34,227 nt of DNA from Desulfobacterales bacterium (GCA_050123495.1 JASFGZ010000003.1:1-34227); one strand, 5' to 3'. Positions 2,103 to 34,175 are shown, counted from the stretch's first letter. Notes: generated by a model not told the origin, from the sequence alone. Numbers and translations are program-made.

Positions 2103-2134
2103 AATCCGCAAGCTGCAATCCGAAACTCGAAATT
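2103..2134 (-). repeat. Heptamer array (ATTGCGG family), solo arm
   Basis: + strand AATCCGC AAGCTGC AATCCGA AACTCGA AATT. On the transcribed (-) strand this is an ATTGCGG-type arm about 20 nt after the mlaD stop. Confidence 0.7.
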
Positions 2135-2154
2135 GGGCAGTCCAATGCCCACCC

Positions 2155-2616
2155 TTATTTTTCCTCACCACCGACATCACCGAATGCATATTTGCTGACA
2201 AGTTCCATGATGTCTGTTGGAGATTCGGTATCGGTGATGGTATCACCGTTTGCCAGCAAATCACCGCCGCCGCCGGCATCGATGCTCACAAATTTGTCGC
2301 CGATTAATCCCTCGGTCTTGATGGAGGCAATCGCATCATCGTAAATTTCAATGCCGTTATTAATTTTTAATTCGACAATGGCCACCTGGTTTTCCTGGTC
2401 CATTTTAAAAGACTCCACCCGGCCGATCTCGAGACCGAGCATATTGACGGGATTGCCGACTCTGAGACCGGTCACGTTGCTAAACTTGGCATATAAAGAA
2501 TAGGTGTTTTCCCCGAGAAACCCGATATTGCCAAGTTTTACAGTCATGTAAGCAATGCAAAACAACCCGATGACCACAAAAAGTCCGACAACTGTTTCCT
2601 GAGTATACTTTTTCAT
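2155..2616 (-). CDS. mlaD: MlaD (MCE-domain) protein
   Basis: N-terminal TM (ETVVGLFVVIG), FSNVTGLRVGNPV, ASIKTEGLIGDKFVSI. Start overlaps the mlaF stop (TAATG). Confidence 0.95.
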   Translation of the reverse strand: MKKYTQETVVGLFVVIGLFCIAYMTVKLGNIGFLGENTYSLYAKFSNVTGLRVGNPVNMLGLEIGRVESFKMDQENQVAIVELKINNGIEIYDDAIASIKTEGLIGDKFVSIDAGGGGDLLANGDTITDTESPTDIMELVSKYAFGDVGGEEK

Positions 2617-3869
2617 TAGGTTTTACCTCCGCGTTCACATTGAAAGCGTGCAATCGGTTTTTGGTTAAATCTGGCGAATTCCATAACGGATTCTATCTCA
2701 ATTTGAGGTTTGCCCTGAGCCAGACCGGCAAGAATATTGAATTCGAAGCAGTCGTCCGGGACCTTTTCCCCCTCGACCAGGCTTTGAATATTCGGCAAAC
2801 CATGCTCCAGAAAATCTTTTTTAAAGTCCACCATAATGCGTTCGGCTTCCTCAAGGTCGGAATAGGGCAGCACGGTCGCATATTCATTAATGGTCTGCCG
2901 TGCGGAAAATCCGCCGACCGCACCAAAGTGCTTATTAATATAGGACCCCAGGGCCCTTATGATCTCCTGAGTGGCGTCGTGCCCCATGTTCTCACTGACA
3001 AGATCGATCTCTTCAAGCGCAAAGATGGCCACCGCATACATGGCATCCGGATGCCGCTTGCTCAAATCGGTTTGATAGCGGACTTTAAAGTGGCGCTTGG
3101 AGTACAGACCGGTAATGTCTTCCTGCAGGCTTTCGAGGCTGGTCAGGATTTCTTCACGGAACGGATGTTCAAATTCCTCGAACTCATCCGGGGTGCCCTG
3201 GAAAACGATCTTCTTGTCATAAAGGGCCAGAATGCGATTGGAGATAAAATACACATCCGGGATTTCATGGCTGATCAAAAGAGCGGTAAAACCAAACCGG
3301 TTTTGATATTCCGCCACCATACCCAGAATGGCATTTTTACGAATGGGGTCCTGGCCGGTGGTGGGCTCATCGAAGAGCACCAGAGAAGGATCGGTTACCA
3401 GCGCCCGGGCCAGAGCGGCCCGCTTCTGCATACCGCCCGACAGTTCAGACGGGTATTTATCAAACACCTCGGTCAGCTCGGTCTGCTCGATGCTGGCCAT
3501 GACCTTCTCCGCAATTTCCTTTTTGCCCAGACGGGTGGTCTGACGCAACGGGAGGGCCACATTTTCAAAAACCGTCATCGAGTCAAAAAGGGCGTTGTTC
3601 TGAAACATGTAACTGATCTGACCGATGTAGGCGTTCCATTCTTTTCTACTCATTTTATCAATGGGTTTACCCCGATACAGAACTTGACCCTCATCCGGTT
3701 TGAGCAGCCCGATAATGTGCTTGAGGGTCACACTCTTACCGGTACCGCTCAACCCGATTAAGGTGGTTACTTCGCCCTCATAAATTTTAAAGTCGACTTT
3801 ATCCAGAATGGTTCGCACGTCAAACGTCTTGGTCACGCCTTTAAATTCGATTATTGGCTCTTTTTCCAT
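2616..3869 (-). CDS. mlaF: MlaF ABC ATPase fused to a C-terminal degenerate GGDEF-like domain
   Basis: Walker A GLSGTGKS, signature LSGGMQKR, Walker B LFDEPTTG, H-loop ISHE. An extra ~165 aa begins DITGLYSKRHF and contains MGHDATQ and ARQTINEYATVLP. Confidence 0.9.
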   Translation of the reverse strand: MEKEPIIEFKGVTKTFDVRTILDKVDFKIYEGEVTTLIGLSGTGKSVTLKHIIGLLKPDEGQVLYRGKPIDKMSRKEWNAYIGQISYMFQNNALFDSMTVFENVALPLRQTTRLGKKEIAEKVMASIEQTELTEVFDKYPSELSGGMQKRAALARALVTDPSLVLFDEPTTGQDPIRKNAILGMVAEYQNRFGFTALLISHEIPDVYFISNRILALYDKKIVFQGTPDEFEEFEHPFREEILTSLESLQEDITGLYSKRHFKVRYQTDLSKRHPDAMYAVAIFALEEIDLVSENMGHDATQEIIRALGSYINKHFGAVGGFSARQTINEYATVLPYSDLEEAERIMVDFKKDFLEHGLPNIQSLVEGEKVPDDCFEFNILAGLAQGKPQIEIESVMEFARFNQKPIARFQCERGGKT

Positions 3870-3878
3870 AATAGGCCT

Positions 3879-4727
3879 TTACAAAATGAAAGAGGTTACA
3901 ACATAATCTGAAATCAGGATCATCACACATGATAGCACGACAGCGGATGTGGTCGACAGGCTGACGCTGCGGGCACCGTAACTGTCGGTGCGCATATGGG
4001 TGAAAAAACCCTGAAAGCAGCAAATGGTGACGACAAGAATTCCAAAAACCAGGGATTTCACAAAACCGCCGGTGATATCTTCCATTTGAGTGGCGGAAAT
4101 GACCCGGTAAAAATAAGCGCCGGAGTTAACTCCCAGCAAAACACAGCCGCTGATCCATCCGCCGATGATACCGATAAGATCAAAAAAGGCTGTTAAAATG
4201 GGAAAACTGATGATGGCAGCCGCAATCCGCGGGCTGATCAAAAAACCCACCGGATCGATGCGCATGGTGGACAGAGCATCGATCTGTTCGGAAATACGCT
4301 GGATGCCGATCTCGGCGGTCATGGCCGATCCGGCCCGGGCGGTAATCATAATCGCTGTCAGAACCGGCCCCATTTCTCTGATTAATGAAAGCGCAACGGC
4401 AGTACCCAGCACACCCACCGAGCCAAATTTAACCAGAACATGATACAGTTGCAGGCCCAGTACCATGCCGGTAAAAAAGCCCACCAGCATAACGATCTGG
4501 GCGGATTTGGCTCCGATAAAGTATATCTGTTGGATGATGGCAGGAATCTGCTTATAATGAAAAATCATGAAGAAGGACCGGAATAAAAAAATCGCAATGG
4601 CCCCCAGATTGCCGTTGATCCTCAATGTTTTTGCGCCAAAAGGATGAAAAATCCACGTAAATGGATTTCCCGGTTTTTCGACTGCGATAGCGTCGGACGG
4701 GTTTTGCTCGTTCGAATTTTCTGCCAT
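3879..4727 (-). CDS. mlaE: MlaE ABC permease
   Basis: REMGPVLTAIMITARAGSAMTAEIG, EQIDALSTMRIDP, TTSAVV motifs. Start placed at ATG 4727 (AAGGAAG upstream). Confidence 0.93.
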   Translation of the reverse strand: MAENSNEQNPSDAIAVEKPGNPFTWIFHPFGAKTLRINGNLGAIAIFLFRSFFMIFHYKQIPAIIQQIYFIGAKSAQIVMLVGFFTGMVLGLQLYHVLVKFGSVGVLGTAVALSLIREMGPVLTAIMITARAGSAMTAEIGIQRISEQIDALSTMRIDPVGFLISPRIAAAIISFPILTAFFDLIGIIGGWISGCVLLGVNSGAYFYRVISATQMEDITGGFVKSLVFGILVVTICCFQGFFTHMRTDSYGARSVSLSTTSAVVLSCVMILISDYVVTSFIL

Positions 4728-5051
4728 GGTGAATCTTCCTTCTTTTTTTTTTGCCGAATCTTCAAGTTCAATAGCTGAAACGCTATTTAAGGCATGAGAC
4801 ATTCATCGGGAAATCTAATCATTCTGCCCCACTGTTTATTATCACAAAAACTGCCAAGCGCAAGCATAAAATAGGAATACCTATTATTTTTAACTGAATA
4901 ATTAGACTTAAACCGTATAAATCCATTTTAAACTGATTTTCTTTATTTTGATGAATTTTCGGCAGAATTATCTCAAAAAAAGCAGATATTGACTTTAAAT
5001 TAACAGATGATAATGTTTTCGAACGGTTAGCGAATATATCAGGAGGAAAAT

Positions 5052-7157: not shown

Positions 7158-7220
7158 ATAGGTCGTGGCAAACTCATTCTGGCAGAATAGTGGCCTTATA
7201 CGCTATTAAGACGCCTTTTA

Positions 7221-7252
7221 ATTGCGGATTGCAGATTGCAGATTGCGGATTT
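7221..7252 (+). repeat. Heptamer array, left arm of an inverted repeat
   Basis: ATTGCGG ATTGCAG ATTGCAG ATTGCGG ATTT. Confidence 0.92.
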
Positions 7253-7329
7253 ACTAATACGAAGAGCATGTGCATTATTGACAGATTGGGGGATTGGATA
7301 TTCAAAAGGAAAATAATGGGAGGAAGCAA

Positions 7330-7694
7330 ATGGGAAATGAAACAGCGATGAATCCAGAAGTAATGAAAGATCGGACAAAGAAATTTGCAAAACAGATTAT
7401 TCTCCTTTGCCGAAAACTGCCTAAAAATCGAGAAGGAAATCTGATTGGAAATCAAATTTTTAGGTCGGGTACCTCAGTTGCGTCCAACTATCGTGCAGAG
7501 CAAGATCTAGAGCCGAATTCATTGCTAAAATGGGTATTGTAGAAGAAGAGGCAGATGAAAAATTATTTTGGTTAGAGGTAATAGAAGAAATAGAAATCTT
7601 TAATAAAGATTTAATTTCATCCCTGATGCGAGAATGCAATGAAATTTTATCCATGGTGGTAGCCTCAATAAACACGGCCCGAAAGGGAAAGTAA
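7330..7694 (+). pseudogene. Four-helix-bundle protein (23S rRNA intervening-sequence protein/Avd-like family), frameshifted
   Basis: Frame 1 from ATG 7330 (GGGAGG RBS): MGNETAMNPEVMKDRTKKFAKQIILLCRKLP...QIFRSGTSVASNYRA. It continues in the -1 frame from 7497: RARSRAEFIAKMGIVEEEADEKLFWLEVIEE...ECNEILSMVVASINTARKGK* (TAA 7692-7694). This matches the family pattern RSGTSVGANYRAACRARSxAEFxxKxGIVEEEADExxYWLE. Confidence 0.88.
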
Positions 7695-7723
7695 TGTTAC
7701 GTTACAAATTGGATATTAAAATC

Positions 7724-7754
7724 AATCCGCAATCTGCAATCCGAAATCCGCAAT
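7724..7754 (+). repeat. Heptamer array, right arm (reverse complement of 7221-7251)
   Basis: AATCCGC AATCTGC AATCCGA AATCCGC AAT. Its reverse complement matches the left arm at 29/31 positions. It ends a few nt before the ackA RBS. Confidence 0.92.
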
Positions 7755-7769
7755 ACATAAGGTGTGCTT

Positions 7770-8990
7770 ATGAAGGTTCTCGTACTTAACTCCGGAAGCT
7801 CATCGATCAAATACCGGCTCTTCGACATGACCGGCAAAACCGTGCTGGCATCCGGCGTTATGGAAAAAATCGGGGAAGCCGAAAGCCGGCTTACCCACCA
7901 TACCCGCAACCGCAAAGGTGAAATGGTAGAAATCGTCAAAACCGAACCGGTTGCCGACCACCAGCAAGGCTTTCAGCTGATCGGAGCTGTTTTAGGAAAA
8001 TCAGGCGCTGTTCAGGATAATAAGGAACTGTTCGGTATCGGTCATCGGGTGGTACACGGCGGAGAAGAATTTAAGGAACCGACACTTATAGATAAAAAAG
8101 TAATCGACGCCATTCGCAGACTGATCCCGCTTGCCCCGCTGCACAATCCGGCCAATCTGCTGGGTATTGAAGTCGCCATCCAAAACGCCCCGCAGGTGCC
8201 CCAGGTGGCCGTGTTTGACACAGCCTTTCATCATTCGATTCCGGTGCATGCGTTTCGCTACGCCATCCCGCAGGATCTCTACGAAGCGCACCATGTCCGC
8301 CGCTACGGCTTCCACGGGACATCTCATCATTATGTCGCCAAACAGGCGGCAAAGTTAATGAACCGCCCCCTGGATTCGCTAAACCTGATTACCCTGCACC
8401 TGGGAAACGGCGCCAGCGCGACCGCGGTTAAAGAGGGTATCAGTATTGATACGTCCATGGGTATGACCCCCCTTGAAGGTCTAATTATGGGAACCCGCAG
8501 CGGTGATATCGACCCGGCGATTATCTTTTATCTCAAGAGGAAGACCGGTCTGGCCAGAGATGCGGTTGAATCCATACTGAACAAAGAAAGCGGCCTGAAA
8601 GGGATCTGCGGCGTCAATGATATGCGTCAAATTGAAGAGCTCGCCCGCGACGGCAATCCCCGGGCTAAGCTGGCCATCGAAATGGTTTGCTACCGTATCA
8701 AAAAGTACATTGGTGCCTACGATGCCGTCCTGGGCCGGCTTGATGCGCTGGTGTTTACGGCAGGCATCGGTGAAAAATCACCTCTGATTCGTGCGGGTTC
8801 CTGCCAGGGGCTCGCTCATCTGGGAATCGAGGTGGATCCTGATAAGAACAACCGCAGGTCGAAAGAGGCATTTGAAATTCAGGCCGAAAGCAGCACCGTC
8901 AAAGTCCTTGTTGTTCCCACCAACGAAGAACTCGAAATTGCCGAGCAGACGGTTGCGTGTGTCGAACACAATCGAGACCAGGGCAAATAA
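7770..8990 (+). CDS. ackA: Acetate kinase
   Basis: LVLNSGSSSIKY, GHRVVHGG, APLHNP, VFDTAFH, RRYGFHGTSH, HLGNGAS, MGTRSGDIDP, FTAGIGE, PTNEE. Confidence 0.97.
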   Translation: MKVLVLNSGSSSIKYRLFDMTGKTVLASGVMEKIGEAESRLTHHTRNRKGEMVEIVKTEPVADHQQGFQLIGAVLGKSGAVQDNKELFGIGHRVVHGGEEFKEPTLIDKKVIDAIRRLIPLAPLHNPANLLGIEVAIQNAPQVPQVAVFDTAFHHSIPVHAFRYAIPQDLYEAHHVRRYGFHGTSHHYVAKQAAKLMNRPLDSLNLITLHLGNGASATAVKEGISIDTSMGMTPLEGLIMGTRSGDIDPAIIFYLKRKTGLARDAVESILNKESGLKGICGVNDMRQIEELARDGNPRAKLAIEMVCYRIKKYIGAYDAVLGRLDALVFTAGIGEKSPLIRAGSCQGLAHLGIEVDPDKNNRRSKEAFEIQAESSTVKVLVVPTNEELEIAEQTVACVEHNRDQGK

Positions 8991-15993: not shown

Positions 15994-16671
15994 ATGGCAG
16001 AGACAACAAAAGCTGCATCGGGTGTCCAGGAACTCATCAGCCGGCTGCGGGATGAAGGGGTTAAAGCCGGCCAGGAAAAATCCGATCAGATTCTGCAAGA
16101 GGCCCAGGAGCAGGCTTCCCGGATTGTTGCTCAGGCCGAAGCTGAGGCCGAAGAAATATTATCGAAGGCCCGCAGCGAAATCGAAACGGAGAAAGCGGCT
16201 GCCATTGAATCCTTGCGCGTGGCGATTCGGGATACCGAGCTTAAAATGGAGGCGGAGGTGAAAGCCGATTTTGCGGCGCATGTCAGACGGCTGGTGTCCG
16301 TTGAATTGAGCGACAAGAAATTTCTGCGGCAGATTATTCTGGCTATCGCCGGCATGGCTGCCGGCGAAAAAGCTTGTGAAGATAAGCCTGTAGAGGTTCT
16401 GCTTCCCAAAGATCTGTTTGAGACCGATGAAAAGCGCACCCGGCTGACCAAAAAGGGCCAGGATCGCGTAAGGCACTTGGTGTTGGGTATCTCCGGCGAT
16501 ATGCTGCGGGAAGGTATTGATTTAAAACCCTCTGAGGATATCAGCGGTGGTATTCGGATACGCCTGGTCGGCGAAGATCTGGAGATCGATTTATCCGATC
16601 GAGCCATTTCCGATTTGCTGTTGCAAAATTTGCTCCCACGGTATCGGGCTATTGTCAGTGGGATGGAGTGA
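15994..16671 (+). CDS. ntpE: V/A-type ATP synthase subunit E
   Basis: GVQELISRLRDEGV, Ala/Glu-rich coiled coil, C-terminal ISGGIRIRL...EIDLSD. GGAGG RBS. Confidence 0.85.
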   Translation: MAETTKAASGVQELISRLRDEGVKAGQEKSDQILQEAQEQASRIVAQAEAEAEEILSKARSEIETEKAAAIESLRVAIRDTELKMEAEVKADFAAHVRRLVSVELSDKKFLRQIILAIAGMAAGEKACEDKPVEVLLPKDLFETDEKRTRLTKKGQDRVRHLVLGISGDMLREGIDLKPSEDISGGIRIRLVGEDLEIDLSDRAISDLLLQNLLPRYRAIVSGME

Positions 16672-16676
16672 GTTCA

Positions 16677-16707
16677 ATTGCGGATTTCGGATTGTGGATT
16701 TGGAATT
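16677..16707 (+). repeat. Heptamer array (ATTGCGG family), solo arm
   Basis: ATTGCGG ATTTCGG ATTGTGG ATTTGGA ATT, starting 5 nt after the ntpE stop. Confidence 0.8.
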
Positions 16708-21377: not shown

Positions 21378-22397
21378 ATGGCAACTACAGTCGGCCTAAT
21401 GGGCTTTGGAAGAATCGGAAGAAATCTATTTCGAATTCTTTACCAGAGTGCAGACATTAAACTGGCCGCCATCAGTGATATTGCCGATCATAAGGCCCTG
21501 GAATATCTCTTGCGCTTTGATACGATTCTGGGACCGTTCCCGGATGAGGTCAGCGTACAGGAAGGCAATCTCTATGTGGTCGGCCGCCAGATTCCCATGC
21601 TTTCTGAAAAGGAGCCCGGCGATGTGCCCTGGGGGGATTTGGGGGTGGACATTGTAATTGAAGCCACGGCCCAGTTTCGGACCCGGGATGATTTTGAAAA
21701 ACATCTGAAACAGGGCGCCAAACGCGTGATTCTATGTGTGCCCCAGAAGACACCGCCGGATATCACGGTGGTCATGGGGGTCAACGATGCACAGTTGAAG
21801 CCGGAACATCGGATTGTTTCCAATGGGTCCTGTACGGCCCATTGTGCTGCTCCGGTGGTCAAGATCTTACACGAGGCGTTCGGTATTCAAAGAGCGTTTT
21901 TGAGTACCGTTCATGCATATACCAACCAGCAACGTCTGGCGGATGTGCCCTCCGAAGATAAACGGCGTGGACGCGCAGCCGCCGAAAATATCATCCCCCA
22001 GGAAACCAATGCAGCTCAGGTGGTCACCGAGCTGATTCCGGATCTTGCCGGACGGCTGAGCGGGGCTTCCATGAATGTACCGGTTCCCAACGGGTCCGTG
22101 GTGGACCTGGTTTGCTGGCACGAAAAACCGGTGACGGATGTGGCCATTAACGAAGTTATCCGAACGGCGGCGGCTTCGGATCAGTGGAAGGGAATTCTGG
22201 TCTATGAGGACGATCCCATTGTTTCCAGTGATATTATTCGCAGCACCTATTCAAGCACTTTCGATTCCATGGCAACCATGGTCCAAAAAGATAATGTTTC
22301 CAAAACCCTGGCCTGGTATGACAATGGTTGGGGCTACGCCCATCGGGTGGTTGATCTTATTCGTAAGTTTATGGAAATAGACAAGGAGGCAGCATAA
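21378..22397 (+). CDS. Type I GAPDH-family paralogue with divergent active site
   Basis: GFGRIGR, SNGSCTAHC, TVHAYTNQQ, WYDNGWGY. Canonical IIPTTTGAA and MRVP are replaced by IIPQETNAA and MNVP. Confidence 0.88.
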   Translation: MATTVGLMGFGRIGRNLFRILYQSADIKLAAISDIADHKALEYLLRFDTILGPFPDEVSVQEGNLYVVGRQIPMLSEKEPGDVPWGDLGVDIVIEATAQFRTRDDFEKHLKQGAKRVILCVPQKTPPDITVVMGVNDAQLKPEHRIVSNGSCTAHCAAPVVKILHEAFGIQRAFLSTVHAYTNQQRLADVPSEDKRRGRAAAENIIPQETNAAQVVTELIPDLAGRLSGASMNVPVPNGSVVDLVCWHEKPVTDVAINEVIRTAAASDQWKGILVYEDDPIVSSDIIRSTYSSTFDSMATMVQKDNVSKTLAWYDNGWGYAHRVVDLIRKFMEIDKEAA

Positions 22398-23404
22398 TGG
22401 CTATTCAAGTTGGCATAAACGGCTTCGGCCGCATCGGCCGGAGTGTATTTCGGATCATCAGTGATCGAGACGATATGGAAGTTGTCGCGATCAACGACTT
22501 GTTTGACAATGAGCAACTCGCTTACCTCCTCAAATATGATACCGTGATGGGCATTTTTGATAAGGAGGTTACCGCTGAAGAAGATGCCATGACCGTCGGT
22601 GATCATCGGGTCGCCATGACCGAGCATCGCGATCCGGCTGAAATCCCGTGGAAGGATTTAGGCGCGCAGTTTGTGATTGAAGCCACCGGCGTATTCCGCA
22701 ATCGCGAACCCTTGGAAAAACATATGGCAGCGGGCGCAGAAAAAGTGATTCTGACGGTGCCTGCACGGGAAGAAATCGACGCTACCATCGTGATCGGAGT
22801 TAACGATGAAGAACTCAAGCCGGAACACCGCATTGTCTCAAATGCATCCTGCACAACCAACTGCCTGGCACCGATCGCTAAAATCCTCGATGATGTGTTC
22901 GGCCTCGAAGAGGGTTTCATCACCACGGTGCACGCTTACACCAATGACCAGCGCCTGGCGGATGTCCCGCATAAAGATTTTCGTCGCAGCCGCGCAGCCG
23001 GCGAAAACATCATCCCGACGACCACCGGAGCAGCCAAAGCCGTTGGCAAGGTGCTGCCCCAGCTGAAAGGGAAACTCGATGGGTTGGCCATGCGGGTGCC
23101 GGTGCCGGATGGTTCGATCGTGGACCTTGTCTGCAGGCTGGGCAAAAAGGCCTCCCGCAAAGATATCAATGCAGCGGTTCAGGAAGCTGCCGGTGGGCCG
23201 ATGCAGCGCGTTGTCGAATACAGTGAAGCGCCATTGGTTTCCAGCGATATTATCGGCAACACGCATTCGAGTATCTTCGATGCCCTATCAACAAGCTCCG
23301 AGGAAGACGGCTTTGCCCGCATTGTTTCATGGTATGACAATGAGTGGGGCTATTCTAACCGGGTCGTGGATTTAATCGAGATGTTAGCGGCATTCGGAAA
23401 ATAA
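22397..23404 (+). CDS. gap: Glyceraldehyde-3-phosphate dehydrogenase, type I
   Basis: INGFGRIGR, SNASCTTNCLAP, HAYTNDQ, IIPTTTGAAKA, MRVPVPDGS, WYDNEWGYS. Coupled to the upstream paralogue via TAATG. Confidence 0.96.
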   Translation: MAIQVGINGFGRIGRSVFRIISDRDDMEVVAINDLFDNEQLAYLLKYDTVMGIFDKEVTAEEDAMTVGDHRVAMTEHRDPAEIPWKDLGAQFVIEATGVFRNREPLEKHMAAGAEKVILTVPAREEIDATIVIGVNDEELKPEHRIVSNASCTTNCLAPIAKILDDVFGLEEGFITTVHAYTNDQRLADVPHKDFRRSRAAGENIIPTTTGAAKAVGKVLPQLKGKLDGLAMRVPVPDGSIVDLVCRLGKKASRKDINAAVQEAAGGPMQRVVEYSEAPLVSSDIIGNTHSSIFDALSTSSEEDGFARIVSWYDNEWGYSNRVVDLIEMLAAFGK

Positions 23405-23431
23405 ACTGGCATCAAGTGTGCGGACAACTGG

Positions 23432-23525
23432 ATTTCGGATTTTGGATTGCGATTAAATCAAACCGAAAATTCAGCCATTCGTTCAATCATTAAGATCAAA
23501 AATCTGAATTCTAAAATCCAAAATC
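23432..23525 (+). repeat. Degenerate paired heptamer arms without cargo (gap-pgk junction)
   Basis: Left ATTTCGG ATTTTGG ATTGCG ATT (23432-23454). Right AATCTGA ATTCTAA AATCCAA AATC (23501-23525), just before the pgk RBS. Confidence 0.65.
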
Positions 23526-23540
23526 TTTTAGGGGGAAAGT

Positions 23541-24737
23541 ATGAACAAGCTTACCGTTGAAGATTTAGATCTGAAGGGCAAACGCGTTCTGACGCGGGTT
23601 GATTTCAATGTGCCACTGGAAAGCGGCAGGGTTGCCAACGACAAACGCATTCGCGCCGCCCTGCCGACCATTAAATATATCACCAACGCCGGCGGCACGC
23701 TTATTCTGATGTCCCATCTGGGGCGCCCCAAAGGCAAGCGCGTTCCGGAAATGTCGTTGGAACCGTGTGTGACAGTGCTCAACGCCCTGCTTGGAAGAAA
23801 GGTAAAATTTATTGATGACTGCATCGGAGAAAAAGTTGAGACCGCAATCGATCATCTCAATGGGGGGGATATTCTCCTGTTGGAAAATTTGCGGTATTAC
23901 GCAGAAGAGACCGATAATGATCCGCACTTTGCAGCCAAGCTGGCCAGACTTGGCGATGTTTATGTAAATGACGCCTTTGGCACCGCGCACCGGGCCCATG
24001 CATCAACAGAAGGCGTCACCCATCATATTTCACAATGCGCCGCAGGGTTTTTGCTGATGAAAGAGCTCGACTATTTGGGAGACGTCATGGCAAATCCGCA
24101 AAGACCATTTGTTGCCATTTTAGGCGGTGCCAAGATATCCGGCAAAATTGACATTATTTCCAATTTGCTGCCCGCCGTCGACAACATCCTGATTGGCGGA
24201 GGAATGACGTATACATTTTTTAAAGCCCAGGGAAAGGAAATCGGTAACTCTTTGCTCGAAGAAGATAAAATTGCATTGGCTAGAGAACTGCTGAACCAGG
24301 GCGGTGAAAAAATTATCCTTCCGGTTGACTGTATGGTTTCAGAGACATTTGATTTCAATGCGCGTCAGGTCGGTGCACTAAAAGAAGTTGGCGCAGATGC
24401 GATTTCCGCAAATGAATTCGGTCTGGATATCGGACCGAATTCTATCGAAAAATTTCGAAGGATTATCGGCGCTGCCAAAACCGTTATCTGGAACGGCCCC
24501 ATGGGGGTTTTTGAAATTGAAGCAACCGCAAAAGGAACCTATGCCATCGCGAATGCCCTGGCCGAAGCAACCGCAAAAGGCGCCACAACCGTTATCGGCG
24601 GCGGCGATTCGGCTTCGGCAATCAACAATGCCGGAGTTACCGATCGCGTCTCGCATGTTTCAACCGGCGGTGGCGCGTCACTGGAATTTATGGAGGGAAA
24701 GGTGTTGCCGGGAGTGGCGGCGTTAACTGATAAGTGA
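23541..24737 (+). CDS. pgk: Phosphoglycerate kinase
   Basis: RVDFNVP, MSHLGRP, LLENLR, VNDAFGTAHRAHAS, WNGPMGVFE, GGGDS, HVSTGGGASLE. Confidence 0.97.
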   Translation: MNKLTVEDLDLKGKRVLTRVDFNVPLESGRVANDKRIRAALPTIKYITNAGGTLILMSHLGRPKGKRVPEMSLEPCVTVLNALLGRKVKFIDDCIGEKVETAIDHLNGGDILLLENLRYYAEETDNDPHFAAKLARLGDVYVNDAFGTAHRAHASTEGVTHHISQCAAGFLLMKELDYLGDVMANPQRPFVAILGGAKISGKIDIISNLLPAVDNILIGGGMTYTFFKAQGKEIGNSLLEEDKIALARELLNQGGEKIILPVDCMVSETFDFNARQVGALKEVGADAISANEFGLDIGPNSIEKFRRIIGAAKTVIWNGPMGVFEIEATAKGTYAIANALAEATAKGATTVIGGGDSASAINNAGVTDRVSHVSTGGGASLEFMEGKVLPGVAALTDK

Positions 24738-24772
24738 TCTAAAGTGCCTAAAGTGAACTAAAGTGAGCTAAA
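24731..24772 (+). repeat. 9-10 bp tandem repeat with core CTAAAGTG
   Basis: CTAAAGTG at 24739, 24748 and 24758, partial CTAAA at 24768, and a degenerate first unit TAAGTG(A) containing the pgk stop. Confidence 0.8.
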
Positions 24773-24776
24773 TTTA

Positions 24777-24848
24777 ATTGCGGATTGCGGATTTTGAACG
24801 GGCGATATGTTTGATATTTCAATCCGCAATCCGCAATCCGAAATTCAA
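24777..24848 (+). repeat. Paired inverted heptamer arms without cargo (pgk-fba junction)
   Basis: ATTGCGGATTGCGGATT (24777-24793) is the perfect reverse complement of AATCCGCAATCCGCAAT (24821-24837), with a 27-nt spacer. The right arm continues CCGA AATTCAA. Confidence 0.9.
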
Positions 24849-24864
24849 GTTAACGGAGGATAGC

Positions 24865-25845
24865 ATGGCGGACACAAAGCACTACAGTGAACTCGGTTTG
24901 GTAAACACCCGCGACATGTTTAAAAAAGCGATAGCGGGGGGCTACGCCATCCCGGCTTATAATTTTAACAATATGGAACAGCTCCAGGGGATCGTTCTCG
25001 GATGCGTGGAATCAAAATCACCGGTAATTTTGCAAGTGTCCGGCAGTGCCAGAAAGTATGCCAACCCGACATTTCTGCCCTACATGGCAATGGGGGCCGT
25101 ACAGATGGTAAAAGCGCTCGGCGCCACGATTCCGGTAGCCCTGCATCTGGACCACGGAGATTCTTTTGAGCTGGCGAAATCCTGTATTGATTCCGGATTT
25201 TCTTCGGTGATGCTCGATGGATCCCACCATCCGTTTGATGAGAATGCAAAACGGACCCGGCAGGTTGTTGAATATGCCCATGAACGCGAAGTTAGCGTGG
25301 AAGGTGAACTGGGGGTTTTGGCCGGGGTCGAAGATGAAGTCTCCCACGCGGTTTCCCATTATACCAAACCTGAAGAAGTTGAAGCCTTTGTCGAAAAAAC
25401 CGGCGTGGACAGCCTGGCAATATCTATCGGTACATCGCACGGCGCCTATAAGTTCAAGATAAAACCCGGGGAACAAGTCCCGCCTCTTAGATTTGATATT
25501 CTGGAAGAAATCGAAAAGCGCTTACCGAATTTTCCCATTGTTCTGCACGGCGCATCGACCGTTGTCCCGGAATATGTCAAGATGATCAACGCATTTGGCG
25601 GCAAAATGAATGATGCTGTTGGAATCCCCGAAACGCAATTAAGAAAGGCAGCCGGCTTGGCGGTATCTAAAATCAATATCGACTCTGACGGCCGGTTGGC
25701 CATGACGGCGGTCATTCGCAAAGTATTTGCCGAAAATCCGGCGGAGTTCGATCCGCGCAAATATTTAGGGCCGGCACGCGAAGAGCTTATTCAGATGGTG
25801 AAGTATAAGAATGCGCATGTCCTCGGCAGCGCCGGCAAAGCATAA
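24865..25845 (+). CDS. fba: Fructose-bisphosphate aldolase class II
   Basis: PAYNFNN, ALHLDHG, FSSVMLDGS, VEGELG, IGTSHGAYK, IVLHGAS, KINIDSD, FDPRKYL. Start moved to ATG 24865 (GGAGG RBS). Confidence 0.95.
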   Translation: MADTKHYSELGLVNTRDMFKKAIAGGYAIPAYNFNNMEQLQGIVLGCVESKSPVILQVSGSARKYANPTFLPYMAMGAVQMVKALGATIPVALHLDHGDSFELAKSCIDSGFSSVMLDGSHHPFDENAKRTRQVVEYAHEREVSVEGELGVLAGVEDEVSHAVSHYTKPEEVEAFVEKTGVDSLAISIGTSHGAYKFKIKPGEQVPPLRFDILEEIEKRLPNFPIVLHGASTVVPEYVKMINAFGGKMNDAVGIPETQLRKAAGLAVSKINIDSDGRLAMTAVIRKVFAENPAEFDPRKYLGPAREELIQMVKYKNAHVLGSAGKA

Positions 25846-25848
25846 TCG

Positions 25849-25880
25849 ATTGCGGATTGCAGATTGCGGAATGCGGATTT
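25849..25880 (+). repeat. Heptamer array (ATTGCGG family), solo arm
   Basis: ATTGCGG ATTGCAG ATTGCGG AATGCGG ATTT, 3 nt after the fba stop. Two mismatches to 7221-7252. Confidence 0.9.
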
Positions 25881-25967
25881 ATGAATGCACCGATTGGGAT
25901 TAACAAAATTTTCGTTTTTAACTTAATAATAGGTTAAGGTATATTAAGCGAACAATGAAAGGAACCG

Positions 25968-27263
25968 ATGATGCCTGATTTTAAAACCGAGGATATCGTT
26001 AAAAATGTGGGTTTTGTTTCCACACGGATTGCCGGTACGGATGGGGTGTCGCTTGAACTCGAAAAATGGGCGAATGTTTTTGAAAAGCTGGGACTGACCT
26101 GTTTTTATTTCGCAGGTGAGCTGGATCGCCCCCCGGAACGATCCTACCTTGTCGAAGAAGCCCATTTTACCCATCCTGAAGTAAAGGCGGTTTATAACAA
26201 ATCTTTCGGTACGATTACGCGTGACCGCGCTGTCTCCAAAAAAATTTATCATCTGGCCATAAAATTAAAAGACGATTTATACGAATTTGTCGACACGTTT
26301 GGCATTGATCTTATTATTCCTGAAAACGCCCTGACCATTCCGTTGAATATCCCCCTGGGGATCGCTTTAACCGAATTTATTGCAGAGACCAATATCCGTA
26401 CGCTGGCCCATCATCATGACTTTTACTGGGAACGGGACCGATTTATGGTAAACGCCGTGTCGGATTACTTAAATATGGCATTTCCTCCGGTTCTGCCTTC
26501 AATCGAACATGTCGTCATCAACTCGGTTGCTGATGCCCAGTTGAGTTTACGGACCGGTATTTCATCTCATGTTATCCCGAACGTCATGGATTTTGACAAT
26601 CCACCGCCGCCACCGGATGAATATACATTCGATGTAAGACAGGCCCTTGAAATCGCAGACGATGAGCTATTTGTTCTGCAGCCGACGCGCGTGGTTCAAC
26701 GCAAGGGAATCGAGCATGCCATCGAATTGATTCACCGGCTGGGCCGCAAAGCCAAATTGGTGATCTCGCATGCCTCCGGTGATGAAGGTTATGACTATGA
26801 ACAGCGACTGAAAGAATATTCCAAGCTGATGAAGGTCAACACGATTTTCGTTTCCGACATCATCAATGAGGAAAGAGGCACAACCAGCGACGGAAGAAAA
26901 ATTTACACGCTTGAAGACATTTATCCGTATGCGGACCTGGTCACCTATCCATCCACCTTTGAGGGCTTTGGCAACGCATTTTTGGAGACACTCTATTTTA
27001 AAAAACCCATCGTTGTGAACACCTATTCAATTTATCTAAAAGATATTCAGCCCAAAGGATTTAAGGTTATTGAAATTGATGGTTACGTCACAGATAATGC
27101 GGTCAAACAGACAGAACGGGTATTGGACAACCCAGAGCTTTGTAAAGAAATGGTCGATCACGATTATGCCTTGGCAAAAAAGTATTTTTCTTACACGGTT
27201 CTCGAACGCATACTCAGCCATTATATGATTGAACACAATTATATGGCGCCTGAATGCCGGTAG
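25968..27263 (+). CDS. GT4 (GT-B) glycosyltransferase, mannosylglucosylglycerate synthase-like
   Basis: STRIAGTDGVSLE, AHHHDFYWER, QPTRVVQRKGIE, YPSTFEGFGNAFLE (E-x7-E). Substrate assignment is inferred from motifs and neighbours. Confidence 0.8.
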   Translation: MMPDFKTEDIVKNVGFVSTRIAGTDGVSLELEKWANVFEKLGLTCFYFAGELDRPPERSYLVEEAHFTHPEVKAVYNKSFGTITRDRAVSKKIYHLAIKLKDDLYEFVDTFGIDLIIPENALTIPLNIPLGIALTEFIAETNIRTLAHHHDFYWERDRFMVNAVSDYLNMAFPPVLPSIEHVVINSVADAQLSLRTGISSHVIPNVMDFDNPPPPPDEYTFDVRQALEIADDELFVLQPTRVVQRKGIEHAIELIHRLGRKAKLVISHASGDEGYDYEQRLKEYSKLMKVNTIFVSDIINEERGTTSDGRKIYTLEDIYPYADLVTYPSTFEGFGNAFLETLYFKKPIVVNTYSIYLKDIQPKGFKVIEIDGYVTDNAVKQTERVLDNPELCKEMVDHDYALAKKYFSYTVLERILSHYMIEHNYMAPECR

Positions 27264-27276
27264 AAGGAGAGGCTAA

Positions 27277-28971
27277 ATGGAAAGCATGGATAAGGTAAAA
27301 GACCTGCTTAAGAAAATATATGGGCAAGCGACTGGAACGCTTGCCTTAGAACGGATTGCACCGGTAATTGAAAAATATGCCGTTAAAAAAAGCAAAAAGG
27401 AGTCCTATTTCTCCCAGAAAGACGTGGTACTGATCACATACGGCGACTCCTTGAAGAAAGATGGTCAAGCACCCCTGGCAACGCTGCATGCGTTTGCCAA
27501 CCAATACCTGAAAGGCGCTATTTCCAACATTCACTTTTTGCCCTTTTTCCCCTATTCTTCGGATGATGGTTTTGCGGTCATGGACTTTTTTCAGATCGAT
27601 CCCGAACTGGGCACCTGGCAGGAGGTCGCCTCCATCGGCCGAGACTTTGAATTGATGTTTGACTATGTCGTCAACCATTATTCCTCCAAGGGGCAATGGT
27701 TCCAGAATTATCTGGACGGTAAAAACGGATTTACCGAATTTGCCATGGAAGTCGATCCCGCGACCGATCTGTCGATGGTTACCCGGCCCAGATCTTTGCC
27801 GCTTTTATCGGAGTACCAAAAAAAAGACGGTCAAAAGGTTCATCTGTGGACGACGTTCAGTGCCGATCAAATCGATTTTAATTTCAAAAACCTGGATGTG
27901 CTTGAAAAAATGATAGATGTCCTGCTGTTTTATGCCGATCAGGGCGCGACTATTTTAAGGTTGGATGCGATTGCCTATTTGTGGAAGGAAATCGGCACCA
28001 CCTGCATTCACCTGTCTCAGACCCATGATATGGTAAAACTGTTCCGGGCCGTATTGGATCTGGTGGCTCCGGATGTCATCATCCTGACCGAAACCAATGT
28101 TCCACATGATGAAAATATCAGTTATTTTGGCGACGGTCGTGACGAAGCCCAGATGGTTTACAATTTTACGCTGCCGCCGTTGTTGTTTTATTCATTTGTA
28201 AAAGAAGATGCCACGGTTCTATCCAGCTGGGCCAAAGGTCTTTATCTGGAATCTGAACACAACACGTTTTTTAATTTCACGGCATCCCATGACGGCATCG
28301 GTGTCCGTCCGCTGGAGGGTATCCTGGATCCTGAAGAACTGGATGGACTTACCGAAATCGTAAAAGCCAATGCAGGGCAGGTTTCTTACAAGCAAAATCC
28401 CGACGGATCTGAAAGCCCCTATGAATTGAACATTACCTATGTCGACGCTATTTTAGCCGACACAACGTCAAGCAATGCAGAAAAATTTCTGGCGTCCCAA
28501 GCAATCCAATATGCCCTCCCGGGTGTGCCGGCAACATATGTTCACAGTCTGCTGGGCTCACGCAACTGGGTAGAGGGGGTAAAGCAAACCGGCAGGGCCC
28601 GGACCGTGAATCGCGAAAAACTGCAGATCGAAAAAATCATTCCGGAATTAAATGATCCTGAATCCTTTCGCTCGCGGGTCTTTTTCCCGTATCTGAATTT
28701 AATTAAAACGCGCAAGAAACAAAGGGCATTTCATCCCAATGCCGGGTTTGAAATTCTGCAAATCGACCCGAAAGTTTTCGGGATCAAACGATACAGCGAA
28801 AACCAGACGATTTATGCGCTCACCAATATTTCGTCTGAAACCATTTCCGTTTCGCTTTCGCAAACAGCGTCAACCGATCAAACAACCGATTTAATTACCG
28901 GCGAAATGTTAAATACGGCGGCACTTAATCTGGATCCTTATCAGTATGTGTGGCTTGAAGAAAAAAGTTAA
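27277..28971 (+). CDS. GH13_18 sugar phosphorylase, probably glucosylglycerate phosphorylase (YcjM-like)
   Basis: LITYGDS, HFLPFFPYSSDDGF, WTTFSADQID, RLDAIAYLWK, TETNVPHDEN, YNFTLPPL, ASHDGIG, PYELNITY (YExN rather than the YQxN of sucrose phosphorylases). Confidence 0.85.
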   Translation: MESMDKVKDLLKKIYGQATGTLALERIAPVIEKYAVKKSKKESYFSQKDVVLITYGDSLKKDGQAPLATLHAFANQYLKGAISNIHFLPFFPYSSDDGFAVMDFFQIDPELGTWQEVASIGRDFELMFDYVVNHYSSKGQWFQNYLDGKNGFTEFAMEVDPATDLSMVTRPRSLPLLSEYQKKDGQKVHLWTTFSADQIDFNFKNLDVLEKMIDVLLFYADQGATILRLDAIAYLWKEIGTTCIHLSQTHDMVKLFRAVLDLVAPDVIILTETNVPHDENISYFGDGRDEAQMVYNFTLPPLLFYSFVKEDATVLSSWAKGLYLESEHNTFFNFTASHDGIGVRPLEGILDPEELDGLTEIVKANAGQVSYKQNPDGSESPYELNITYVDAILADTTSSNAEKFLASQAIQYALPGVPATYVHSLLGSRNWVEGVKQTGRARTVNREKLQIEKIIPELNDPESFRSRVFFPYLNLIKTRKKQRAFHPNAGFEILQIDPKVFGIKRYSENQTIYALTNISSETISVSLSQTASTDQTTDLITGEMLNTAALNLDPYQYVWLEEKS

Positions 28972-28999
28972 CTTCTATCGATAAGTTGAGGTGGTATCT

Positions 29000-31120: not shown

Positions 31121-31143
31121 GCCGGCAAGGCCTATAATTAATA

Positions 31144-31154
31144 ATTGCGGATTG
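31144..31154 (+). repeat. Minimal remnant of the ATTGCGG arm
   Basis: ATTGCGGATTG 23 nt after the phosphohexomutase stop. Short, so supported only by position and polarity. Confidence 0.4.
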
Positions 31155-31218
31155 ATTCTTAATAACCATTGTCTATAGCAATTAATCTACTTAACATAAC
31201 GCAGTACGAGGAAACCCC

Positions 31219-32649: not shown

Positions 32650-32670
32650 AAAAGCGCCATGGCGCTTTTT
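32649..32670. terminator. Perfect 22-bp palindrome, intrinsic terminator-like in both directions
   Basis: AAAAAGCGCCATGGCGCTTTTT at the pyk stop; GC stem followed by a T5 tract. Confidence 0.6.
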
Positions 32671-32673
32671 CGT

Positions 32674-32709
32674 TAATTGGTTGAATTTGTTAAATTGGTT
32701 TTATTGGTT
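32674..32709 (+). repeat. 9-bp tandem repeat x4 (nnATTGGTT)
   Basis: TAATTGGTT GAATTTGTT AAATTGGTT TTATTGGTT. Confidence 0.75.
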
Positions 32710-32725
32710 AGAACCGGAGGAGAAT

Positions 32726-34069
32726 ATGAACTCAAATACTGGAAAGATGCGGGAACATGCCATGCAGATCTTTCAGGCCGGCTTACAGGCAGTAGACCCG
32801 GTGGAGGCCATTAAGCGTCACACCAGATTAGAAAAAGATCTTCTTTTTATCGGCGACCGGCAATTCAGCCTTAAGGATTATGATAGAATTATAGTGGTGG
32901 GTGCCGGAAAAGCCGCTGCCCCCATGGCCAGAACCGTGGAAGAACTTCTGGGAGATCGCATTTCGAACGGGGTCGTTGTTGTCAAAGATGAACACGGCTT
33001 ACCTTTAGAGAAAATAAAGGTTTGCGAGGCCAGTCACCCAGTCCCGGACAAACGCGGGGTAAAGGGTACGGAGGAAATCCTCTCCCTGGTAGAAAAAGCA
33101 GGTGAACGCGATTTGATCATTTGCTTGATTTCCGGAGGGGGATCTGCACTTTTAATTGCGCCGGTTAAGGAAATATCGCTTGAAGACAAACAAAATGCCA
33201 CAAAACTTTTATTGGCAAGCGGTGCAACGATCCATGAGTTTAACACCGTCCGTAAACATCTTTCCCGGGCCAAGGGGGGCCGACTGGCACAGATGGCCAA
33301 TCCCGCTACCATTACCAGCCTGATCCTTTCAGATGTGGTGGGGGATGATCTGGATGTGATTGCATCAGGACCGACGGTTCCAGATTCCAGCACGTTTGAA
33401 GACGCCGAACAGATACTCAAAGGCTATGGCATCTGGGATCAGCTGGCGTCATCTGTCCGCAACCATATTGAGAAAGGATCCTCCGGCCAAATAGCGGATA
33501 CACCGAAATCAGATAATGCGGCTTTTTTAAAATGCTCCCAGGTGCTGGTTGGAACCAATCTGCACGCCTTGAAAGCTGCCGGCCAAGCAGCTCAGAGGCT
33601 TGGATATCGCCCTTTGATTCTTTCTTCCAAAGTAGAGGGTGAAGCCCGCGAGGTGGCCAAGTTTTATACCGCCATCGCCAAGGAGATCCTCGCATCAGCG
33701 CATCCAATGGAACCTCCTGTGTGCGTACTTGCCGGGGGAGAAACCACCGTAACCCTCCAGGGAGATGGCCGCGGCGGCCGCAACCAGGAGTTCGCACTGG
33801 CAGCGGCGCTGGCAATCGAGGGGTTAGACAAGGTCATCGTGCTGAGCGGCGGCACCGACGGGACAGACGGTCCTACGGATGCGGCCGGCGCTATCGCCGA
33901 CGGCACCACCATGGCACGCGCCCGTGAAAGCGGTCTGGATCCGAAAGATTTTCTTGAGCGCAATGATTCCTACAACTTCTTTCAGAAACTGGATGATCTC
34001 GTAATGACAGGGCCAACGCGCACCAATGTGATGGACCTGTACATGCTGGTGGTGGGCAGCGCTAAATAA
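32726..34069 (+). CDS. Glycerate 2-kinase, class II (GckA/TtuD; DUF4147 + MOFRL)
   Basis: VGAGKAAAPMA, ASHPVPD, LISGGGSALL, RKHLSRAKGGRLA, SDVVGDDLDVIASGPT, GGETTV, GGRNQE, GTDGTDG, TGPTRTNVMD. Start ATG 32726 after GGAGG. Confidence 0.92.
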   Translation: MNSNTGKMREHAMQIFQAGLQAVDPVEAIKRHTRLEKDLLFIGDRQFSLKDYDRIIVVGAGKAAAPMARTVEELLGDRISNGVVVVKDEHGLPLEKIKVCEASHPVPDKRGVKGTEEILSLVEKAGERDLIICLISGGGSALLIAPVKEISLEDKQNATKLLLASGATIHEFNTVRKHLSRAKGGRLAQMANPATITSLILSDVVGDDLDVIASGPTVPDSSTFEDAEQILKGYGIWDQLASSVRNHIEKGSSGQIADTPKSDNAAFLKCSQVLVGTNLHALKAAGQAAQRLGYRPLILSSKVEGEAREVAKFYTAIAKEILASAHPMEPPVCVLAGGETTVTLQGDGRGGRNQEFALAAALAIEGLDKVIVLSGGTDGTDGPTDAAGAIADGTTMARARESGLDPKDFLERNDSYNFFQKLDDLVMTGPTRTNVMDLYMLVVGSAK

Positions 34070-34175
34070 TTTCGAATTTAGGATTGCGGCCTGCGACACG
34101 TTCAGCGGAGTCGATTGTGGATGGGTTAAAAAAAATGCATCGCATTATTAAATCTGCAATTCGAAATCGATAATC
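34069..34175 (+). repeat. Degenerate paired heptamer arms without cargo after glycerate kinase
   Basis: Left ATTTCGA ATTTAGG ATTGCGG [24-nt insert] ATTGTGG (34069-34120). Right AATCTGC AATTCGA AATCGAT AATC (34151-34175). Confidence 0.7.

Follow-up and report, generated by a model that had tools for sequence, protein, structure and literature searches.

Probable palindromic-repeat origin of ATTGCGG heptamer arrays in operon spacers of a Desulfobacterales bacterium

The window and its heptamer arrays

We examined short tandem arrays of the heptamer ATTGCGG in a 34,227-nucleotide (nt) stretch of DNA from a Desulfobacterales bacterium, referred to here as the window, which is the entire contig C3 (1-34227) of assembly G000. 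This assembly comprises 4.63 Mb in 600 contigs, with a G+C content of 47.7%, a completeness of 90.1% and a contamination of 4.9%. Among named records, the phosphoglycerate kinase of the window is closest to Desulfobacterales-type genomes, the best matches being 73% to an 'uncultured delta proteobacterium' metagenome-assembled genome (MAG), 70% to Desulfosudis oleivorans and 63% to a Desulfobacteraceae MAG, in keeping with a Desulfobacterales-like organism. The gene content of the window is ordinary central metabolism: there is an mla operon on the minus strand, together with pta, ackA, a V-type ATPase operon, iPGM, two GAPDH genes (the second is called gap2 below), pgk and fba, as well as a glycosyltransferase gene, an amylase-family gene, a PGM-family gene, pyk and a glycerate-kinase-like gene. 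Genes were called from open reading frames (ORFs) and codon usage, and ORF starts were taken as the longest possible.

Arrays were located by scanning for at least three tandem units of ATT[GT][CT][GA][GA] (ATTKYRG) with at most one mismatch per unit. Tandem Repeats Finder (TRF) was used as a second detection, both on the window and genome-wide, and a third-order Markov shuffled genome served as the chance baseline for the genome-wide scan. The scan returned 10 arrays in the window, at 2106-2133 (-), 7221-7248 (+), 7727-7754 (-), 16677-16704 (+), 23432-23452 (+), 23490-23524 (-), 24777-24797 (+), 24817-24844 (-), 25849-25876 (+) and 34069-34089 (+), and TRF reported period-7 rows at 7221, 7723, 16677, 23430, 23491, 24777, 24820 and 25848. 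The exact heptamer ATTGCGG occurs 19 times, compared with 9.3 ± 3.3 times in shuffles, and only 1 of 100 shuffles reached 19. The array load is 10 where 1.26 would be expected from the genome average (Poisson P ~9e-7), and the window is the densest in ATTGCGG-family arrays among contigs with at least four arrays. Seven of the eight sites reported by the initial annotation hold arrays of at least three units, and the eighth, at 31144, is a true remnant. As that annotation had also stated, every array in the window is flanked by called genes and follows a stop codon.

Paired arms are found at four junctions. The pta-ackA spacer contains a cassette with a left arm at 7221-7251 (+; ATTGCGG ATTGCAG ATTGCAG ATTGCGG ATT) and a right arm at 7724-7754 (-; AATCCGCAATCTGCAATCCGAAATCCGCAAT on the plus strand). 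Pairing between the two arms extends to 29 of 31 positions (score 25), and the fold of 7215-7760 retains the arm-closing stem in both the minimum free energy and the centroid structure (z -3.85; 0 of 100 shuffles). The right arm ends 9 nt short of the GTG start called for the ackA ORF (7764), the first ATG being at 7770. The loop of the cassette holds a broken four-helix-bundle gene at 7294-7694 (+), in ORF pieces 7294-7542 and 7530-7694. The gene is of the S23p/23S_rRNA_IVP type, with PF05635 matches at 7372-7491 and 7491-7658 and TIGR02436 on both pieces. It has 7 nt fewer than the copy in the related genome G018, which carries tandem CGTGCAG twice at that place and in which the ORF is intact with about 126 amino acids.

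The other three pairs are shorter hairpins. In the gap2-pgk spacer a degenerate hairpin at 23432-23524 (left arm 23432-23452, right arm 23490-23524) folds weakly (z -0.92 for 23428-23528), and its orthologous copies in G018, G011 and G014 are better preserved and have their loop in common. The pgk-fba spacer carries the canonical short element at 24777-24844, made up of an arm at 24777-24797, a 19-nt loop at 24798-24816 and an arm at 24817-24844. The fold of 24774-24848 has a free energy of -30.7 kcal/mol (z -4.76; 0 of 200 shuffles), and this 68-nt hairpin has many dispersed copies in congeners at 81-94% identity. The 9-10-nt units (CTAAAGTGN family) arrayed at 24732-24772 (+) are what the window retains of an older hairpin, namely its left arm, the right one having been lost; the full 9-mer hairpin is found at the pgk-fba junction in G018, G021, G009 and G004. 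The last pair, a degenerate hairpin at 34069-34175, follows the stop of a gene that ends at 34069; its left arm (34069-34089) is retained by G018 at the orthologous place. The right arm (~34150-34175) is too degenerate for the unit scan, yet takes part in pairing when the hairpin is folded (-29.0 kcal/mol, z -1.98).

Single arrays without a partner arm, each of four units, are found at three places. The array at 2106-2133 (-) lies in the mlaD-mlaC spacer 21 nt past the mlaD stop and reads ATTTCGA GTTTCGG ATTGCAG CTTGCGG on the minus strand; its fold is not significant (z +0.62), and the same junction in G018 has a different, CGAATAC-like array family. The array at 16677-16704 (+) begins 5 nt past a stop at 16671 in the V-type ATPase operon (fold z -0.61), and that at 25849-25876 (+) begins 3 nt past the fba stop (fold z +0.90). 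The remnant ATTGCGG ATTG at 31144-31154 (+), in the pgm-pyk spacer, is by itself at chance level, being one exact unit and a partial one. We nevertheless regard it as a true remnant because G018 has a full hairpin at exactly that junction.

Distribution of arrays across the genome

The scan found 171 ATTKYRG arrays genome-wide, compared with 16 in the shuffled genome. While intergenic DNA makes up ~20% of the genome, 145 of the 171 arrays are intergenic, so that equal frequency inside coding sequences, an outcome specified beforehand as counting against the claims made for the arrays, was not what we found. Ten of the others fall on the 5' edge of ORFs that were called too long, and 16 are well inside coding sequences, 12 of the latter being weak 3-unit matches. 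Pairs within 700 nt account for 56 of the 171 arrays and the remaining 115 are single. Within 100 nt, the ATTGCGG arm comes first in 26 pairs (two of these, self-overlapping detections, were later dropped) and second in 3. We attribute this near-fixed order to copying of the paired arms from a common template. Among congeners, 20 of 21 have the ATTGCGG heptamer pattern, as do 23 of 24 genomes of the family but only 4 of the order's 16 other families; the reversed-pattern control gave 0.

The ATTGCGG arrays are one of many families of arrays with 7-10-nt units. Genome-wide, TRF found 692 period-7, 518 period-8 and 473 period-9 arrays, compared with 77, 116 and 91, respectively, after shuffling. 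An inverted partner within 700 nt was present for 228 of 1933 merged arrays of period 6-10, and the corresponding controls gave 2 (reverse-only) and 8 (complement-only). Families could not be defined by single-linkage clustering of the units, which linked almost every heptamer in a single chain. The inverted partners form 224 unique array hairpins, which are intergenic with none deep in a coding sequence; 156 lie between co-directional, 23 between divergent and 20 between convergent genes, and 25 are at contig ends. Relative to the expectation from spacer length, hairpins are enriched between co-directional genes (145 versus 116 expected) and depleted between divergent ones (22 versus 44 expected; p 4.6e-5). 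More of them are nearer the upstream stop (89) than the downstream start (44), and this result is conservative since the longest-possible ORF starts bias against it. The distribution is therefore a spacer-only one, mostly a few tens of nt past a stop codon and between co-directional genes, and the arrays are linked to transcription units by position and not by strand. Array hairpins occupy 173 of the 1757 spacers of at least 100 nt in the genome.

We considered whether the hairpins could be intrinsic terminators. At least four T residues follow the stem in 14 of 134 hairpins on the sense strand and in 19 of 134 on the antisense strand; with no sense excess of T-runs and with the window hairpins absent from the terminator-like list, the terminator model was rejected. 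The whole window gave 0 matches to Rfam families at gathering score.

A few arrays occupy coding regions or bracket them. ATTGCGG-family arrays stand in frame within proteins at G000:C494:2165-2192, C567:2146-2173, C541:1992-2019 and C286:5750-5784. The hosts are two hybrid sensor kinases, with the array in a receiver-domain loop (encoding ...IRNLKSEIRN...), a MutL-like protein, with the array in a linker adjoining a second array family, and a Mur-ligase-like protein. Such in-frame arrays in tolerant protein loops point to an origin at the DNA level. At G000:C347:2096-2471, inverted GTTAnTA-type arrays bracket the gene for ribosomal protein S19 within a ribosomal protein operon, and the two spacers flanking this essential gene thus carry matching arms.

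Orientation of arrays relative to transcription

The initial annotation had proposed that the arrays are polarized by transcription, the ATTKYRG arm coming first on the sense strand and its complement downstream. In the window this arm rule holds for 4 of 4 single sites (2106, 16677, 25849 and the 31144 remnant) and for 4 of 4 pairs. For inverted pairs the rule is uninformative, because [ATTGCGG]n...[CCGCAAT]n keeps the same arrangement when reverse-complemented; only single arrays and an asymmetric full element can test polarity. We therefore examined the 74 single arrays that lie between co-directional genes, after excluding 41 others (8 convergent, 5 divergent, 12 at contig ends and 16 deep in coding sequences). 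Of these, 39 were in the sense and 35 in the antisense orientation (p 0.73), and the split was 16 versus 18 among those with at least four units. The asymmetric full element has 31 of its 45 loci between co-directional genes, 14 in the same and 17 in the opposite direction; when restricted to clear orientations the numbers are 9 and 12 (p 0.66). Random orientation relative to transcription, the outcome named in advance as speaking against polarity, is thus what the genome displays. What looks like polarity in the window comes from symmetry where arms are inverted pairs, and from chance in sampling where the four arrays are single.

A function at the RNA level, or else directional insertion, had been suggested on the basis of this polarity. 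The part resting on strand did not survive, while a positional association with transcription units, past stops and between co-directional genes, did. Hairpins of ATTGCGG arrays with a gap of 1-100 nt number 24, of which 18 lie between co-directional genes, and the sense strand folds better in 7 of these, the antisense strand in 10, with one tie (p 0.59). For all array families together (n = 134) there was likewise no sense-strand advantage, with 68 versus 65 (p 0.65). Changes between arms that preserve G-U pairing, suggested as a sign of RNA selection, were looked for at consensus pairs in an alignment of 13 copies; G-U and A-C cells were equal at 5 each, and 1 of 11 consensus pairs showed two Watson-Crick types, so few pairs are available for either argument. 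When RNA run X1 (0.11 of sampled words, contigs) and run X2, which is of unknown kind, were compared with 21400-27600, short pieces only were recovered, and many of the matching pieces derive from other loci with the same repeats.

Anatomy and cargo of the elements

A full short copy of the ATTGCGG element is an imperfect palindrome of ~100-130 nt. It consists, in order, of outer 8-mers (TTGGAGCA-like), three to five ATTKYRG heptamers, a 19-nt loop (TATCAAACATATCGCGCAT-like), complementary heptamers and complementary 8-mers. In 13 ATTGCGG hairpins the loop is exactly 19 nt, and these copies have in common the loop sequence, the outer 8-mer flanks and arm-specific variants; thus one arm may have ATTTTAG in second place, facing AATGCAG in its partner. 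Independent slippage at each locus would not reproduce such asymmetries of arms and loop, whereas copying from a template would, and the comparison shows that the elements are copied as discrete units. A profile built from the 13 best copies with a 19-nt loop recognizes 45 distinct loci in the genome.

Larger relatives carry in the loop a small gene of the intervening-sequence (IVS) type, either four-helix-bundle or GxxExxY. All four places with PF05635 in the genome (5 matches, 2 of them in the broken gene of the window) lie within inverted arrays, each bounded by a different unit family, and all three matches to PF13366 (GxxExxY, TIGR04256), which are genes or fragments, do so as well. Among the 15 hairpins with loops of at least 250 nt, 7 are filled by PF05635 or PF13366 genes; three others contain rpsS, an MvhD-like ORF and a 142-amino-acid ORF without NCBIfam match, respectively, and the remaining large loops are without a clear ORF.

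Orthologous junctions

Comparison of orthologous spacers revealed the same elements in several states. Of the 17 genomes compared at the pta-ackA junction, G018, G012 and G014 possess an undamaged cassette bounded by ATTGCGG arms. The window copy bears the 7-nt frameshift; in G015 the gene is internally deleted with both arms kept in a 285-nt spacer, and in G021 a 37-nt spacer contains only a 14-nt remnant, CCGCAATCCGAAAT. G011 and a second G014 contig carry a second four-helix-bundle allele, whose ATTTTGG arms are nested in CCGCAAT remains. Nine genomes have hairpins of other families (CAGGTGT, GGCTTCT, ATTGGTT and others), and the partial locus of G020 has a non-array palindrome. The left arm has four units in all four genomes in which it is complete in the fetched DNA (G000, G018, G012 and G015).

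The gap2-pgk junction, compared in 16 genomes, is of the ATTGCGG type with a shared loop in 4, of the GGACTGAG and/or CACAGAC type in 9 and of the CTTCGTG type in 3. The nine GGACTGAG/CACAGAC loci often hold further nested palindromes; G003 has CACAGAC-type units only and G015 a remnant only. At pgk-fba (15 genomes), the 9-mer hairpin is intact in 4, and in both the window and G020 an ATTGCGG element sits at the centre of the 9-mer hairpin with the right 9-mer arm gone. Its loop is in opposite orientation in the window species and in G020. At the junction of fba with the glycosyltransferase gene (7 genomes), a single ATTGCGG array stands just past the stop in 3 (G000, G008 and G013), with differing unit variants; G011, G012 and G020 have 50-65 nt spacers without an array, and one further genome has another palindrome.

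Array elements are nested in one another. In addition, a non-array palindrome lies inside the right arm of an array hairpin in the pgk-fba spacer of G020 (L105:1328-1552), and non-array palindromes occur in or beside array hairpins in the pta-ackA spacers of G016 and G020 (L125/L126) as further nesting layers. As the states found at orthologous junctions show, decay proceeds by frameshift, internal deletion and arm loss, leaving single arrays and remnants. The single arrays of the window are explained by this series, which leads from cassette to hairpin, single arm and remnant.

Other features of the window

The two GAPDH genes form a tandem pair at 21378-23404 with a one-base overlap at 22397, a position common to the first gene's stop and the second gene's start. 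An MlaF-like ABC ATPase of the mla operon, at 2616-3869 (-), has a C-terminal GGDEF-like domain (E 2.6e-6), which is an unusual fusion. The segment 8950-19557, including the V-type ATPase operon, is without counterpart in the fetched and otherwise syntenic 54-kb stretch of G018, where ~2.4 kb stands in its place. In the spacer after pyk, 32675-32710 consists of four 9-nt units (AATTGGTTA) of another array family, whose canonical unit AAACCAATT forms 22 arrays genome-wide. This array overlaps the TTG start of an ORF called at 32681, and the gene therefore probably starts further downstream.

Interpretation and alternatives

The arrays are real and their stated polarity is not. We propose, with a probability of about 0.65, that the ATTGCGG arrays belong to a selfish-looking family of palindromic repeats found between genes throughout the genus, of which they form the arms or, where single, the arm that has survived, and that their apparent polarity is symmetry plus chance. 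Such a family would spread at the DNA level, by copying or recombination into spacers and existing hairpins, and by slippage within arrays. Their post-stop position may be where insertions are tolerated, and the architecture of transcription units would then decide which copies survive. When transcribed, intact copies could fold into stems of ~20-30 bp and, by analogy with the IVS of 23S rRNA, may serve as substrates of RNase III. Our tests of orientation, fold and G-U/A-C counts found no sequence sign of selection on the sense-strand RNA.

Several observations weigh against this proposal. Of the signs of transposition that were looked for, neither a target-site duplication nor a transposase associated with the arrays was found. 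The proposal gives no reason for the eight-fold excess of the ATTGCGG family in the window. The sense/antisense tests have low power against an RNA function because a perfect palindrome folds equally on both strands, and the gene calls come from our own caller rather than from a curated annotation. Between G000 and G018 the pta-ackA arms differ at one position on the left and are identical on the right, while the flanks are ~82% identical. Spacers built from arrays make up 16 of 17 pta-ackA and 16 of 16 gap2-pgk junctions (remnant-only cases in G021 and G015 included) compared with 173 of 1757 spacers genome-wide, and this high occupancy fits a retained function as well as a hot spot of nested insertion.

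We also entertain, tentatively, a wider possibility in which gene-less hairpins and orphan arrays are non-autonomous or decayed forms of one class of mobile cassette. The full forms would carry in the loop a four-helix-bundle gene (S23p/Avd-like) or a GxxExxY gene (PD-(D/E)XK nuclease), the IVSs of 23S rRNA would be the subset that landed in rRNA, and the array ends would be recognized by the loop-encoded proteins and RNase III. If true, it would explain why heptamer repeats recur in distant phyla.

The retained function that the occupied junctions could reflect is a punctuation of operons by selected RNA stems, which would be cut by RNase III or block exonucleases and thereby set cistron-specific mRNA stability, as for pta/ackA and gap/pgk/fba. 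The unit sequence would be free to change as long as the hairpin stays, and the same junction does carry different hairpin families across congeners (gap2-pgk 16/16 and pta-ackA 16/17 versus 173/1757). The enrichment between co-directional genes (145 versus 116 expected) with depletion between divergent ones (22 versus 44; p 4.6e-5), the preference for the upstream stop (89 versus 44) and the better conservation of the pta-ackA arms than of their flanking DNA between G000 and G018 agree with such a role, as does the 23S rRNA IVS of Coxiella, which is of the same design and, in the available part of the report, has its RNase III cleavage site at the first heptamer repeat (PMC4990558). Against such a role, the sense strand has no stability advantage (7 versus 10; 68 versus 65), G-U pairs are no more numerous than A-C (5 of each) and the asymmetric element is randomly oriented (14 versus 17). 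The single arrays at 2106, 16677 and 25849 fold no better than shuffles (z +0.62, -0.61 and +0.90), several of the hairpins in the window have degenerated (z -0.92 at 23428-23528) and the cargo genes are decaying. Loss has also occurred without replacement, leaving 50-65 nt spacers after fba in G011, G012 and G020 and 37 nt at pta-ackA in G021. We consider RNA punctuation unlikely on this balance.

Single arrays without an RNA fold, and the even spacing of tandem units that is typical of binding arrays, could instead suggest DNA sites for a protein that recognizes sequence or structure and acts as a nucleoid protein or regulator; the variation in unit number and variants among the orthologous fba-glycosyltransferase arrays (G000, G008 and G013) could suggest slippage-prone switches for phase variation of adjacent genes. 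Dozens of unrelated 7-10-nt unit sequences share the same architecture, more than a single DNA-binding protein could account for, and arrays are depleted between divergent genes, where promoters lie. The location of arrays past stops of housekeeping genes rather than in promoter or 5' regions of contingency genes, and the constant four units of the pta-ackA left arm (G000, G018, G012 and G015), also speak against these ideas. Both ideas are improbable. The fragmentation of the metagenome-assembled genome (600 contigs, 90% complete, 4.9% contamination) and the chance-level single unit at 31144 could be taken to indicate low-complexity sequence arising by chance or an assembly artefact. This was rejected, and retains next to no probability, given the shuffle controls (171 arrays versus 16; 692 period-7 arrays versus 77), the partner controls (228 versus 2 and 8) and the recurrence of the same elements at orthologous positions in other species whose genomes were assembled independently.

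Returning to the palindromic repeat family, the genus supplies an orthologous series that ties together IVS-like gene cassettes, gene-less hairpins and orphan single arrays, and it exposes an apparent strand rule as an artefact of symmetry. To our knowledge, the heptamer repeats of cyanobacteria, Xanthomonas and Beggiatoaceae have been catalogued for decades with no consensus on where they come from or what they do. Should the link hold on a wider scale, many intergenic operon repeats of regulatory appearance would be relics of one selfish cassette class, and annotators should not infer polarity or regulation from such repeats without RNA data. The elements also break assemblies, as in the 600 contigs of G000, and can enter coding loops.

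Comparison with known systems

The initial annotation had held the arrays to be neither CRISPR arrays nor classical repetitive extragenic palindromic (REP) sequences, and we agree. A CRISPR array, which has repeats of 24-48 nt set apart by unique spacers of like length, was rejected because the 7-nt units run head to tail without spacers. REP sequences and the related bacterial interspersed mosaic elements and REPINs are dispersed intergenic imperfect palindromes, often located past stops in operons and often in inverted pairs; they behave as non-autonomous copied units and go together with REP-associated tyrosine transposases (RAYTs). The G000 arms differ in being tandem arrays of a 7-8-nt word and show no RAYT association. 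The genome has 12 paralogous Y1-transposase-like (PF01797) genes encoding ~315-360 amino acids with an N-terminal Y1-transposase domain, on contigs C1, C10, C15, C25, C128, C159, C170, C224, C389, C408, C484 and C540. Eleven of the 12 stand between inverted repeats of their own, 18-43 nt long, with GTCCC(C) or GACCCC ends in ten, and the one on C10 is the sole case flanked by a 10-mer doublet, which is not ATTGCGG. The RAYT/REP model was rejected since these genes carry their own, non-array inverted ends, and the Y1-transposase repeat system is separate from the heptamer arrays.

Of the features of miniature inverted-repeat transposable elements, inverted ends are present, and no duplication is visible when filled and empty pgk-fba sites are compared. 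The pgk-fba element replaces half of an older hairpin and is no simple insertion, and the loop genes are four-helix-bundle or GxxExxY with no transposase. Filamentous cyanobacteria have short tandemly repeated repetitive (STRR) heptamers and small dispersed repeats, with several intergenic heptamer families per genome and small elements nested in repeats; their phylum and units are different from those of the G000 arrays.

That similar heptamer arrays might already have been published proved correct for other phyla. The available part of Rehm et al. 2015 (PMC4692102) describes GGGAATC repeats in Xanthomonas and GGGGA(C/T)T repeats in Nostoc PCC 7120. These are tandem 7-nt units, 89-93% intergenic, with 70-75 'convergent' inverted pairs per genome in Xanthomonas and about equal use of the coding and non-coding strands of the aligned ORFs (30% vs 35%). 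The upstream ORF lies at an average of 28 nt and the downstream ORF at 160 nt, and the fewest repeats are between divergent ORFs. In that account, the intergenic bias, inverted pairs, strand balance, proximity to the upstream ORF and scarcity between divergent genes all match the G000 arrays, which are likewise tandem 7-nt arrays of at least three units above chance, mostly intergenic, with convergent pairs and no coding-strand preference. The G-quadruplex idea put forward there is inapplicable here because the ATTGCGG unit is not G-rich. Compared with the Xanthomonas and Nostoc repeats as so described, unrelated families of 7-10-nt units coexist and nest in G000, and its elements have a conserved loop and outer 8-mers, with some gene-bearing copies.

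In the part of MacGregor 2015 (PMC4679880) available, the TAACTGA repeats of marine Beggiatoaceae, some Cyanobacteria and Bacteroidetes form intergenic arrays of 2-6 copies, which number in the hundreds per genome and occur in operons of essential genes as well. They are arranged as 169 direct sets and 1 indirect set just upstream of start codons, and related heptamers are rare. Relative to that description, the G000 arrays are often inverted pairs, follow stops and comprise many coexisting families.

The 23S rRNA IVS of Coxiella burnetii, according to the portion of the report available (PMC4990558), has an S23p/four-helix-bundle ORF in its loop, a terminal inverted-repeat stem and three tandem GACAGAT units at the 5' side with a copy number that varies among strains; the ORF is decaying and excision by RNase III has been demonstrated. 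The window cassette at 7221-7754 has the same layout as such ORF-bearing IVSs in that account, in its arms, stem, S23p ORF and decay, and differs in standing in a pta-ackA mRNA spacer and not in a 23S rRNA helix (25 or 45). A 23S rRNA gene was found in 1 of 5 searched genomes of the family (G018), none being assembled in G000, and the G018 gene contains no tandem arrays.

Our literature search, which did not extend to supplements, returned no paper on heptamer arrays in Desulfobacterales, none linking GxxExxY or four-helix-bundle genes to the ends of repeat arrays apart from the Coxiella IVS heptamers, and none on array-bounded GxxExxY or four-helix-bundle cassettes in operons. The class of element is already known from the heptamers of Xanthomonas, Nostoc and Beggiatoaceae and from the design of the 23S rRNA IVS, and the G000 family is a variation on both.

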